Shown here: piece after piece, positions 23,224 to 60,121 of the stretch
Layout of the letters: the number at the start of each line of letters is the position of its first letter
How positions within the stretch are numbered: the first letter of the stretch is position 1
From: Octopus sinensis
Lineage: Eukaryota
Length of the DNA: 64,000 bases
NCBI RefSeq assembly: GCF_006345805.1
Contig: NC_043010.1
Coordinates: 55,738,001-55,802,000 of the forward strand
Reading direction: 5' to 3'
Program-made: the position numbers and the translations under genes
The notes under the pieces: model-generated
What the model was told of the DNA's origin: nothing
What the model saw: the letters and a program-made list of their open reading frames with translations, nothing else
Database searches by the model: none

Positions 23224-23404
23224 GATCCATTGGCTGTTGATGTAAGAACAAAACCTTTAGATTCTCCCCATTCTACAGACTCCCTTTCTGGAGATATTCT
23301 GAATATTGCAGAAAATTTTAATCAGCCAGAAAAGAAAATTTTGTCAACATCAAAGGTCATTTTTCCAGAAAATTCTAAGATGGAATTTAACCAAATGCAA
23401 AACA
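23224..23404 (+). CDS. Exon 1 (first seen): low-complexity N-terminal region
   Basis: ctactacag|[20 protein letters not shown]|gtaagt; phase-1 donor fits the next exon. First in-frame ATG at 23380. Confidence 0.6.
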
Positions 23405-58600: not shown

Positions 58601-60121
58601 TGTATTATGTTTCAGGCTTAACTACGTAATGAAGAAGTTCATTTCACAACTATATGATACTATGTTCAATCAGGCATCTTTTGTCATAGCCATGAGATGA
58701 CCAAAACTTTATGGAAACAATTGGGTTGACAGAAACTGCATGATAGCTGTTGTATAGAATAAGGAATAATGTAGGGTTAGGGTTAGAATAGTGTAGTGGA
58801 TATCCAACTCTTAACTTTCCTGTGTCAAATAGTTATAACACTTACTTCTAAAGACCAAAACCCAGTCTGAACTGGAGCTTAAAACCAACCAAGCACAAAC
58901 CAGGATTGGTCATTTAGCATCTTGGATATTGCCTGGTACCAATCACTGGGATTGATGGAAAGTCAACCCTTGCATGCTATAGAGGGTTAGTGGAGAATTT
59001 GAGCAACAATGGTCAGGAAGTAATTCAGAGCATTAAAAATGATATTCTAGTAGTCTCTATTGGAGGATTATGAGTAATTTCCACAAGTTCTGGCTTGGTA
59101 GTGTTGTAAGTATGTTTGGGATAAACTTTACAGATATGATCATGTCAGATCCTCTAGCAACTCATAATTTTAGAGATGGGTGCAGATGATGAAGCCATTC
59201 TACACAAAATAATCCTGCCAAAAATTCAGTGAAACAATATATTATTTTGCTTCAGGCTATTCTGTGCTAACACCAAATGAATATAAAGATTGCCACAATA
59301 TAGTAGGGTTGCATTTACACTGAAAAATATGTAGGCACTATCAAATTGATACATCCTAACTGATGTGAACTTCATCTCAACCTAAAATGTCACAATTTTC
59401 TGGGAAATTCCTCTCAACATCACAGAACGAGCCAGGATAATTGACAAGACATAATCATTAAAGACAGTAAAGAATATACTTATAAACTGATAAATATCTG
59501 AATCTCCACTGGTAAGAATTTGACAAGCTCAATAAATACAAGCTAGAAACTGAAATACAAAAGATGTGGCATCTTAAAAAGAAAACCATCCCTGCTGTTG
59601 TAGGTGCCATCGGTATGATAAAAATGGATGTCAGAAATGGCTGGATAACATCTCAGGAAACCCATCTCTCACAGAAATCCAAAAGATTGTGCTGACAAGT
59701 CCTGCCTACATCCTTAGAAAAAAACCTATCAGCTTAAATATTTTATTCTGTGGGATTCATATGTTTTTATGCTGTCCTCCCCACATTTTCTCCTCAGACT
59801 TTCAATTACATTTAAGCAACTCAAAAATGACTAACGAAGAACATTACAAGTGTGTGTCGTAAAATAGTCGGATGATGTTTACACTGAATGGAAAACAGTT
59901 CAGAAAAAAGTGCATAAATAAGATGAAAAGAAAATGTATAAAAAAATATATAAAGTTTTGTCAAAAAGGTAGAATCCAAGCAAATGATGCTTTATTCTGT
60001 TTTCCAGCTCAACCAAGAATGTATGGATCGAAGAATTTTTTTCTCTTATGTCGATCTAAGATGGGGAATAAGCCAAGAACAGAATCAGCATGAAAAGACT
60101 ATTGCAAATTGTCTTCAAGAA
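23224..60121 (+). CDS. Multi-exon gene (14 exons seen, 1022 codons, incomplete at both ends): 3x beta-repeat + Ig-like + malectin-like + FBA + DUF4062 protein (DUF4062/NPHP3-TTC41-like N-terminal extension)
   Basis: Exons 23224-23404, 25508-25735, 29769-30833, 32695-32856, 36484-36626, 39390-39488, 43888-44187, 47331-47501, 48406-48486, 48992-49115, 55058-55173, 57287-57404, 58221-58384, 60008-60121. All GT-AG; intron phases 1,1,1,1,0,0,0,0,0,1,0,1,0 join with no stop codon; domain motifs continue across junctions. Confidence 0.85.
24881..25190 (-). mobile_element. OR-type SINE with a third type of 3' tail
   Basis: Head as at 8283; tail ..AGCCAGCGGGGTGGCGTC..GACCAGCGATGTGTAGCAACATCTG..GGTCGGTCACGGTGA (fragment also at 43497-43604). 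Confidence 0.85.
25508..25735 (+). CDS. Exon 2: first beta-rich repeat
   Basis: tctttag|(I)[52 protein letters not shown]|gtaag. Confidence 0.8.
25780..26838 (-). mobile_element. Penelope/Poseidon-type element, 5'-truncated, with inverted pLTR
   Basis: ORF 26153-26620: [34 protein letters not shown] (GIY-YIG region). The pLTR is on minus at ~25780-25990 and inverted at ~26640-26838; 12-bp TSD TACATAATTAAG at 25768-25779 and 26839-26850. Confidence 0.88.
26855..28970 (+). mobile_element. Internally deleted Helitron with PIF1-helicase pseudogene
   Basis: 5' TC..TATATAAAAG..TGTCTG, 3' CTAG, A|T target. 27340-28345 encodes [50 protein letters not shown] with stops and frameshifts; degenerate ~145-bp subterminal repeats at 28520-28900. 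Confidence 0.88.
29769..30833 (+). CDS. Exon 3: beta-repeats 2-3 and Ig-like segment
   Basis: 1065-nt open frame between taatacag and gtaagt; core of ORF 29720-31072. Confidence 0.9.
30895..31505 (-). mobile_element. R4/Dong-clade LINE 3' fragment (restriction-like endonuclease)
   Basis: [32 protein letters not shown]-like..IQKI..GT.HILRK; ends in a (TAA)n tract. Confidence 0.85.
31506..32365. mobile_element. Penelope pLTR-like repeat with short inverted segment and (CA/TA) microsatellite
   Basis: Inverted repeat 31508-31553 vs 31672-31710; 32176-32360 is homologous to the 5545-5777 element. Confidence 0.5.
32695..32856 (+). CDS. Exon 4: start of malectin-like domain
   Basis: [30 protein letters not shown] matches malectin 'xxINxGGxxyxdxxGxxyxxD'. 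Confidence 0.85.
33040..34990 (+). mobile_element. Old, degenerate RTE LINE
   Basis: [41 protein letters not shown]...RVP with many stops; same family as 50418-52657. Confidence 0.85.
36484..36626 (+). CDS. Exon 5: malectin-like domain
   Basis: ttttcag|..[19 protein letters not shown]|gtatgt; matches malectin 'IxgTxdxxLYqteR'. Confidence 0.85.
36650..37140 (-). mobile_element. RTE 3'-end fragment with (GAT)n tail
   Basis: Plus strand CATCATCAT..TTTAATGTCTGCTTTCCATGCTAGCATGGGTT..CATGCTTCACCACCTCGTTCCATGTCTTCC. Similar short 3' ends at ~24350-24690, 35860-36055, 38200-38400, 42578-42990 and 54820-55018. Confidence 0.75.
37249..37441. mobile_element. Degenerate Tc1/mariner-like MITE
   Basis: Left CAGTATGGTCTAAAAGTCA vs right (reverse complement) CAGGGTGGGCCAAAAGTAA. 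Confidence 0.4.
39390..39488 (+). CDS. Exon 6: malectin-like domain
   Basis: cttcag|[33 protein letters not shown]|gtaaga; matches 'vxnGxYxvrLHF..vxvNG'. Confidence 0.85.
39860..41310 (-). mobile_element. Penelope-like element (YRDD / WFN..KTNIG type) with inverted pLTR
   Basis: Minus strand: [56 protein letters not shown] (39880-40580, one frameshift). The plus-strand 40580-41310 segment carries a hammerhead motif. Confidence 0.85.
41165..41212 (+). ncRNA. Minimal type I hammerhead ribozyme motif (one core substitution)
   Basis: CTGT-CCGACGA-ACG GGAA CGT-GAAA-CTCAGAG-TA^ACAG: stems I, II and a near-palindromic stem III pair; core CUGANGA has U4->C. Confidence 0.7.
41630..42552. repeat. Nested long inverted repeats (Penelope pLTR-like)
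   Basis: 41635-41860 is inverted vs 42325-42550; 41856-41900 is inverted vs 41972-42030. Confidence 0.75.
41641..41743 (-). ncRNA. Hammerhead-like motif with long stem II and palindromic stem III
   Basis: Minus strand TATGTATCAC CTGATGA AAGTGG..CCACTG GAAA CAGCTG TA TTGAA GTGACACATA; inverted degenerate copy at 42442-42545. Confidence 0.55.
43888..44187 (+). CDS. Exon 7: end of malectin-like domain, linker, start of FBA domain
   Basis: ..[32 protein letters not shown]|gtaaga; NLLxNxxGE is the FBA start motif. Confidence 0.85.
47331..47501 (+). CDS. Exon 8: FBA domain
   Basis: ..[42 protein letters not shown]; matches FBA 'FxtSxxwCxKxQxiDL..LDxxqPxI'. Confidence 0.9.
48406..48486 (+). CDS. 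Exon 9: FBA domain
   Basis: aacag|[27 protein letters not shown]|gtttgt; matches 'VsdWy..cG..Y.l.v.Lld'. Not in the ORF track. Confidence 0.85.
48992..49115 (+). CDS. Exon 10: FBA domain
   Basis: ..[25 protein letters not shown](G); signature 'W..[13 protein letters not shown]'. Confidence 0.92.
50418..52657 (-). mobile_element. Young RTE-clade LINE, 5'-truncated, near-intact RT ORF with embedded PHD finger
   Basis: Long open frame: [80 protein letters not shown]; 3' UTR with ~64-bp tandem units and a (GAT)n tail at 50418. Confidence 0.95.
52658..53135. repeat. (TA/CA)n array with a ~38-bp higher-order unit
   Basis: Repeated ATATATACACATATATAACATCTATATATATATACATAC. Confidence 0.85.
53292..54406 (-). 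mobile_element. RTE LINE fragment (second copy)
   Basis: [36 protein letters not shown]; colinear with 51050-52160. Confidence 0.92.
55058..55173 (+). CDS. Exon 11: end of FBA domain
   Basis: (G)[21 protein letters not shown]; matches 'GkDxxfWxGhYG..t.ssVrv'. Confidence 0.88.
57287..57404 (+). CDS. Exon 12: helical linker
   Basis: tttttaag|[39 protein letters not shown]|gtaagg; phases 0/1 bridge exons 11 and 13. Confidence 0.75.
58221..58384 (+). CDS. Exon 13: start of DUF4062
   Basis: ..[28 protein letters not shown]; signature 'rvFiSSTFxDxxxERxxL..fpel'. Confidence 0.92.
58940..59740 (+). mobile_element. Degenerate R4/Dong-clade LINE 3' region
   Basis: [45 protein letters not shown] aligns with the 31164-31481 endonuclease. 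Confidence 0.7.
60008..60121 (+). CDS. Exon 14: DUF4062 continued (gene continues beyond the window)
   Basis: tttccag|[38 protein letters not shown]|gtaagt; signature 'vDLRWG..CLxEi'. Confidence 0.92.

Follow-up and report, generated by a model that had tools for sequence, protein, structure and literature searches.

The stretch of DNA analysed here (the window; 64,000 nucleotides of Octopus sinensis contig NC_043010.1, positions 55,738,001 to 55,802,000) is AT-rich animal DNA (G000:C14) and carries on its + strand part of a gene in which beta-rich, lectin-like domains are fused upstream of a DUF4062-NACHT-tetratricopeptide repeat (TPR) core. Splicing of the fourteen AG/GT-bounded exons between positions 23224 and 60121 yields 3066 nt, or 1022 codons with no stop, exactly as in the original prediction, an annotation made from the letters alone whose quoted motifs all lie in their places on the + strand. 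The spliced exons are identical to public model P0008 at 970/970 overlapping residues, and the 53 kb that follow the window contain 18 more GT-AG exons (G000:C14:55806710-55854708), which complete P0008 through its stop codon. The first coding exon (105 nt, MGCSPSS..., phase-0 donor) was found on an unplaced scaffold (G000:C10098:11805-11701, L062); 34 of its 35 residues are the same in O. bimaculoides P0007, whose N-terminus is also matched by the low-complexity linker of coding exon 2 (23224..23404). This first exon was not found in the 123 kb upstream of the gene, and its true place is probably upstream of window position 23224, with the neighbourhood of the gap at 11975-12074 as one possibility. 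Because it sits on an unplaced scaffold, P0008 starts at an internal Met (23380) and lacks the myristoylation motif. From these pieces we infer a complete protein of about 1955 residues encoded by 33 coding exons. For exon 2 of the 14, an acceptor at 25469 was rejected because two stops result; 25508 is the right acceptor.

The domain order from N- to C-terminus is a myristoylation motif, a disordered linker, three beta repeats (P0008 residues 22-339), a beta domain (345-450), a malectin-like domain (452-625), an FBA domain (665-825), a helical linker, DUF4062 (905-1120), NACHT, helical domains and TPRs. The original feature list lacked the first coding exon, the three-repeat N-terminal domain and a Trp-to-Arg replacement in the FBA sugar loop. 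It had placed the lectin and DUF4062 exons in one protein, and the continuous phase-matched frame together with full-length relatives rules out two separate genes. In addition, five relatives of 1874-2000 aa (P0003, P0013, P0004, P0038, P0204) are encoded on contigs of just 5.9-6.4 kb, which are therefore presumably spliced mRNAs and support a single transcript in these relatives. Two models, P0002 and P0011, read through a weak donor at 55173 (GTGTGG here) and end after the FBA domain as a lectin-only protein; each is either an annotation artefact or a genuine short isoform.

Three phage-tip-like repeats at the N-terminus

The previously unannotated N-terminal region consists of three tandem copies of a domain that elsewhere occurs singly, at the C-terminus of phage tailspike or fibre proteins. 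Most of repeat 1, with a conserved R-S-G-F-x-x-N-H loop, is encoded by 25508..25735; its end, repeats 2 and 3 (29903-30532) and then an all-beta domain of ~105 aa share one 1065-nt exon (29769..30833). The N-terminal 330 residues, searched as a profile against 1.84 billion representatives, gave 166 matches, 150 of which were listed. With 8 family fragments removed from rows P0106-P0186, every remaining protein (73/73) has one ~95-residue copy no more than 15 residues from its C-terminus. When 27 such single-unit proteins were scanned with PHROGs, 17/27 matched a family of the tail category in another part of the protein, and many single-unit proteins carry a pectate-lyase-type beta-helix. The unit is present in nine viral contigs (L047-L055), and scanned proteins of three of them (L047, L050 and L052) match tail, portal, terminase or endolysin families. 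Presence of the unit was 9/9 in viral loci fetched via the unit motif versus 0/16 in those fetched via the N-terminus of P0106. The phage-type domain is widespread across these contigs and P0106-P0186, has the motif N..G-G..L.L.S ... R.G[YF].GN and also occurs as small stand-alone open reading frames.

In the reverse direction, a profile built from 26 single units found three tandem copies in 26/26 family members (28-51 bits for the best copy and 4-25 for the weakest, versus a maximum of 4.0 over 520 shuffles), a test that is reciprocal rather than independent because the units had been chosen by the family profile. Profile-profile comparison (hhalign) of the triple repeat with phage-type C-terminal domains gave 99.1% and E = 7e-19. 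Plain self-BLAST of the protein did not reveal the three repeats. The triple repeat had no Pfam match under E 0.03 in 13 members and none among PDB sequences; the single unit matched no PHROG or Pfam family and was not found by tblastn against 50,697 cultured phage records. An ESM Atlas search with the repeat returned leads only (0.86-0.91).

The triple repeat was modelled by AlphaFold2 from 13 sequences (pLDDT 87.6), and the pTM of 0.90 indicates one rigid body. The best structural matches of the model include phage tailspike C-terminal domains (5w5p, Z 7.2; 8oq0, 6.6; 6e1r, 6.1; root-mean-square deviation (rmsd) 3.6-4.2), modest values; a VIA Z under 8 can be chance. Baseplate protein 9f4a, which we take to be of the gp9 type from a Foldseek match of the repeat to 1qex, gave Z 9.9 and rmsd 2.4, also a modest value, and Foldseek E-values were weak (best phage chain 2.5e-3). 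The repeat thus resembles phage tailspike/fibre C-terminal beta-sandwich domains (AM24 tailspike, APK09 gp48, ApiP_P1; T4 gp9-type) in sequence homology to the phage-type domains and in a fold like that of the solved tips, and differs in that the octopus gene has three copies per chain, N-terminal, in an intron-rich animal gene, and is just 6-12% identical to the solved structures.

Homotrimer prediction for a single unit (P0120) scored 0.54 versus 0.00 for the best control (pLDDT no lower than 63, with 70% or more of contacts in agreement between runs); the score mark was reached by 21/30 solved pairs and 0/23 single chains, in a calibration on two copies only. We consider the animal triple repeat a putative single-chain pseudo-trimer of the phage tip domain. 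In 12/13 aligned animals, repeat 1 retains the R-x-G-F/Y-x-x-N loop typical of the phage-type domain. Of the faces that meet in the predicted trimer, the loop face is best kept in repeat 1 and the Ser/Thr face in repeat 3, an arrangement in which, speculatively, a single inter-repeat site would stay intact. Conservation of repeats 2 and 3 (21-54%) is below that of the FBA domain. Phage tip domains may have a sugar-binding role or serve trimerisation alone, and the C-terminal domain of KP32gp38 alone is reported to have bound no capsule (PMC13082707). Transfer from a phage or prophage to an animal is the favoured direction, since single copies occur in many phage-type proteins versus one triplicated animal family.

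Malectin-like and FBA domains

The malectin-like domain starts in 32695..32856 (AINCGG), continues through 36484..36626 and 39390..39488 (NGNFILRLH), and ends in 43888..44187, which also encodes a helix and the FBA start (NLLQNASGE). It resembles malectin in fold and motifs, scoring 31.7 bits against a Pfam cut-off of 23 (9/10 members match) and superposing on malectin 2k46 with Z 11.2. The glucose-binding residues of malectin are reported to include Tyr67, Glu87, Tyr89, Tyr116, Phe117 and Asp186 (PMC13335976). Here Glu87/Tyr89 read Ser/Ser and the Tyr116-Phe117 loop is absent; Y67 and D186 were not aligned. Malectin also differs in being lumenal in the endoplasmic reticulum, whereas the octopus protein, which has no signal peptide, is placed in the cytosol.

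The FBA domain continues through 47331..47501, 48406..48486, 48992..49115 (FSDYGPGVR) and 55058..55173, the last of which encodes the sugar loop. Pfam finds it with E = 3e-30 in P0002, a 95%-identical orthologue; against Fbs1 it gave E = 3.5e-19 and superposed with Z 22.3 and rmsd 1.5 at 35% identity. It is the best-conserved domain in 7/8 comparisons outside Octopus (49-73% identity). As predicted, no F-box was recognised, in this case in 5 + 4 = 9 family proteins scanned with Pfam, which argues against an SCF ligase. Fbs1 is reported to require Phe177, Tyr279 and Trp280 for its chitobiose pocket (PMC4603797), and the three positions read His/Tyr/Arg in O. sinensis, as His704 (47418), Tyr805 and Arg806 (CGG, 55075-55077). 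Across 33 family rows the Phe177 position is His in 20, Phe in 6 and Tyr in 5, and the Tyr279 position is Tyr or Phe in 26/33. Trp280 is Trp in 42/44 family sequences; both exceptions are Arg, in O. sinensis and an O. vulgaris model, and a sequencing error is unlikely because two species share it. The O. sinensis site has likely lost canonical chitobiose binding. Conservation at these positions is no proof of binding either, since FBXO44 is reported to have Tyr/Tyr/Trp at the three sites yet to bind no glycan (PMC4603797). The prediction of sugar-binding lectin domains thus held for both folds; the glucose residues of malectin and the Trp essential in Fbs1 are replaced here, yet that Trp persists in most of the family.

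Compared with Fbs1/2/3 (FBXO2, FBXO6, FBXO27), the protein shares the FBA fold, the Tyr-Trp loop is present in most family members, and FBXO27 shares the combination of a myristoyl anchor with FBA; the octopus protein differs in lacking an F-box, in His and Arg at the Phe177 and Trp280 positions, and in an output that would be a STAND-coupled NADase.

The DUF4062-NACHT-TPR core and the distribution of the family

A helical linker (57287..57404, with an alternative in-frame acceptor possible 30 nt downstream) joins FBA to DUF4062, which starts in 58221..58384 (with Phe910 and Arg922) and continues in 60008..60121 with its RWG loop (Arg950) and Cys967; the intron that follows (60122..64000) leads out of the window. 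Pfam matches DUF4062 in relatives with E 1e-8 to 1e-12. The 18 downstream exons encode the catalytic glutamate (SVTQLEI), the NACHT ATPase directly after DUF4062 with intact Walker A (GESGCGKS) and Walker B (VFDALN), the helical domains and the C-terminal TPRs, so that the Walker A and TPRs expected downstream of the window are indeed there. DUF4062 (also NIR or TeTIR) is shown to be a TIR-like NADase in three 2026 preprints (bioRxiv 10.64898/2026.05.01.722283, 10.64898/2026.09.04.749371 and 10.64898/2026.09.21.753143), and loss of TEP1 F902, R914, R942, C959, R976 or E1008 is reported to abolish activity (10.64898/2026.09.21.753143). The octopus domain, aligned via the near-identical P0009, matches TEP1 crystal chain 11gz with E = 1.7e-14. 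F902, R914, R942, C959 and E1008 are identical here as Phe910, Arg922, Arg950, Cys967 and Glu1029; R976 is K985, a Lys in two octopus rows and Arg in 28/30 ungapped rows. Among the ungapped of 33 rows the catalytic Glu is kept in 30/30, Cys in 32/32, R914 in 32/32 and R942 in 32/32, and in NACHT the Walker A Lys in 29/30 and the Walker B Asp in 30/30. On these residues, DUF4062 here is likely an NAD-destroying enzyme, and the earlier proposal of a nucleotide-processing effector now has a published enzyme family behind it.

With the NIR/TeTIR STAND proteins (human TEP1; bacterial PsAvs2 and Swarozyc) the protein shares DUF4062 directly before NACHT and the retained RWG loop, Cys and catalytic Glu. 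Its N-terminal extension occupies the place of the TROVE-vWA region of TEP1, but it has TPRs rather than WD40 repeats and adds the myristoylation motif, triple repeat, malectin-like and FBA domains; no TROVE, vWA or WD40 match was found by Pfam in the family proteins scanned, so the TEP1 layout is absent. The order of the core domains is that of NPHP3, TTC41 and Dictyostelium DDB_G0287407-type DUF4062-NACHT-TPR proteins, from which the octopus protein differs in its ~830-residue beta-rich N-terminal array, in falling below NPHP3 Pfam cut-offs and in keeping the catalytic Glu that NPHP3 is missing. Database labels of family members are uncharacterised, 'NPHP3', 'TEP1' or 'DDB_G0287407-like'.

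An MG start occurs in 29/51 family models versus 0/72 non-family NIR-NACHT-TPR controls; 28 of the 29 have Ser/Thr at position 6 (MGxxxS/T) and 13 have Cys3, and many family models without it look N-terminally incomplete. The N-terminus MGCSPS reads as a myristoylation motif, and the protein may be lipidated there; NPHP3 also starts with MG. No hydrophobic stretch above 1.46 (19-residue window), and no signal peptide or membrane helix, was found in five members scanned, which argues for the cytosolic location proposed earlier.

Searching with the malectin+FBA region, 31 proteins of 1027-3269 aa were found among 1493 candidates, with FBA in 31/31, DUF4062 in 29/31 and NACHT in 27/31. The whole architecture occurs in cephalopods, bivalves, a nemertean, hemichordates, echinoderms and amphioxus, and the annelid Capitella has a partial model. 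No cnidarian, gastropod, arthropod or vertebrate name appears among the 120 matches listed of 1378 to the DUF4062-NACHT core, and many further fragments are unnamed, so that absence is not established. This family makes up the best 48 of those 120. The remaining 72 rows, at 35-39% identity, come from bacteria, amoebae or unnamed sources, and all of them lack the repeats and the malectin-like domain. In a phylogeny built from 24 family and 34 non-family cores, with other rows left out, the family forms one clade (support 1.0) that roughly tracks animal phylogeny. By the searches made, O. sinensis has a single copy of the gene. In sea urchins there is a second paralogue (P0072, P0200, P0204, P0206) that keeps the repeats, malectin-like domain and NADase site and has no Pfam FBA match.

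Possible functions

Tentatively, as a leading candidate rather than a settled account, we read the protein as a membrane-anchored cytosolic STAND protein that would be clustered by exposed glycans and then cleave NAD+, its lipidation, binding, oligomerisation and activity all being extrapolated from relatives and motifs. N-myristoylation at the motif present would hold it on the cytosolic face of membranes. Upon rupture of an endosome, lysosome or phagosome, lumenal N-glycans would meet the FBA fold, as suggested by Fbs1 and by myristoylated Fbs3/FBXO27, which is reported to locate ruptured lysosomes via exposed glycoproteins (PMC6389600). The N-terminal array, which sits where TEP1 has TROVE-vWA, might be a module for targeting or coincidence detection. 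Clustering, to which a second ligand bound by the TPRs might contribute, would then drive nucleotide exchange at the NACHT motifs and oligomerisation as in STAND proteins, and the predicted outcome is NAD+ cleavage upon exposure of glycans to the cytosol. Of the original reading as a glycan-sensing STAND protein, the STAND core with TPRs stands; glycan sensing and activation stay conditional.

Several points weigh against this mechanism. The malectin-like fold is without malectin's glucose-binding E87, Y89, Y116 and F117, and the FBA pocket, with Phe177 replaced by His in most rows, Trp280 by Arg in O. sinensis and the precedent of FBXO44, weakens the case for glycan binding. Since the O. sinensis copy has likely lost chitobiose binding through the Trp-to-Arg change, the mechanism fits the family better than this copy. 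The sensor of a STAND protein is normally C-terminal. Single copy number and descent along the animal tree are unlike fast-evolving immune receptor families. In vitro NADase activity is reported to be low or absent for NWD1, NWD2, TTC41 and three prokaryotic homologues, all of which have the glutamate (10.64898/2026.05.01.722283, 10.64898/2026.09.04.749371 and 10.64898/2026.09.21.753143).

An unlikely alternative, to which the same single copy and vertical descent lend some weight, is an NPHP3-like scaffold of cilia or membranes, in which a myristoylated, UNC119-carried protein would use its lectin-like folds and TPRs to bind proteins and would have no regulated NADase output. Its myristoyl-DUF4062-NACHT-TPR plan is the same as that of NPHP3, which is myristoylated and transported by UNC119, and the aquatic invertebrates named as carriers are rich in motile cilia. 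The Pfam matches to TPR_NPHP3 and NPHP3_hel are weak; the former reaches 82-85 bits, below the cut-off of 100, and a separate, far better NPHP3-type TPR locus lies on C1 at 71.61-71.64 Mb (154 bits). The family also keeps the whole NADase site, whereas NPHP3 is reported to be without the catalytic glutamate (10.64898/2026.09.21.753143).

We give little credence to direct microbe sensing, whereby the phage-derived pseudo-trimer would bind a cytosolic bacterial surface polysaccharide or a phage-like ligand and fire the NADase. The homology of the repeat unit to phage tailspike/fibre C-terminal domains, the top structural matches to tailspike C-terminal domains and the loop retained in repeat 1 are consistent with it, as are the closest non-family core relatives among the matches listed, bacterial and amoebal NIR-NACHT-TPR proteins with the plan of the anti-phage protein PsAvs2 (10.64898/2026.09.04.749371). 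Against this, the phage-type domain has no known ligand and such domains can serve trimerisation only, as KP32gp38 illustrates; repeats 2 and 3 are less conserved than FBA; and the O. sinensis genome shows no expansion or rapid diversification. An evolutionary version of it is a conjecture that we regard as improbable: an early bilaterian would have captured a phage tail-tip domain, triplicated it as a single-chain trimer mimic and joined it with FBA to an Avs-like NADase STAND protein, giving an intracellular immune receptor, shared by animals as distant as octopus and amphioxus, that would detect cytosolic bacteria or ruptured vacuoles with the bacterium-recognising tip of a phage and destroy NAD+. 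An adaptor of cytosolic glycoprotein quality control with weak enzymatic activity or none, with FBA capturing retro-translocated or free N-glycans and DUF4062-NACHT-TPR recruiting partners, would suit the conservation of FBA, the reported role of Fbs1/Fbs2 in degradation of endoplasmic reticulum proteins (ERAD; PMC6389600) and the several inactive glutamate-bearing DUF4062 proteins, but appears doubtful because there is no F-box and because strict conservation of every NAD-site residue for >500 million years is better explained by catalysis.

Whichever function applies, animal DUF4062 STAND proteins were shown to be NADases only in 2026, and the accessible parts of the preprints name no activating ligand for any. 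By pairing recognisable ligand-binding modules with an intact active site, the family offers a direct test of how DUF4062 STAND proteins are triggered, and could show whether glycan exposure leads to NAD+ destruction in invertebrates. Closely related octopus species that differ by Trp versus Arg may serve as a natural mutant pair for glycan binding, and the triple repeat ties an ancient animal gene to the tail tips of phages. No study of the family was found in literature on DUF4062, TTC41, DDB_G0287407, malectin with F-box associated and NACHT, or tail-fiber transfer to metazoans, nor in the accessible parts of PMC11788884, PMC8298618 and PMC11890989; supplements of the preprints (e.g. Table S5 of 2026.09.04.749371) may list members. 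In the main texts of the three preprints 'FBA' appears in none, 'malectin' is absent from two and 'lectin' as a word start from the third. The triple phage-tip repeat in an animal protein is new; the proteins were already known as uncharacterised or mislabelled database models.

Other DUF4062/NACHT genes of O. sinensis are a TEP1-like gene (G000:C3, 23.23 Mb) and NWD-like genes on C17 (23.66 Mb) and C249, both with WD40-like tails, and on C4 (164.25 Mb); an assignment of the C4 locus as NPHP3 was rejected, as it is NWD-like. Within the window, a 6-kb (TA)n array (13523-19585, ~3100 copies, 75% matches) lies upstream of coding exon 2. A fragment of a PIF1 helicase (27263-27583, E = 8e-19) is intronic and likely derives from a decayed Helitron. 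An intron of the FBA region holds a LINE-type retrotransposon (50964-52799, - strand) with a 611-codon frame and RVT_1 and PHD-like matches, and similar fragments lie at about 33200-34900, 53400-54400 and 60700-61800.

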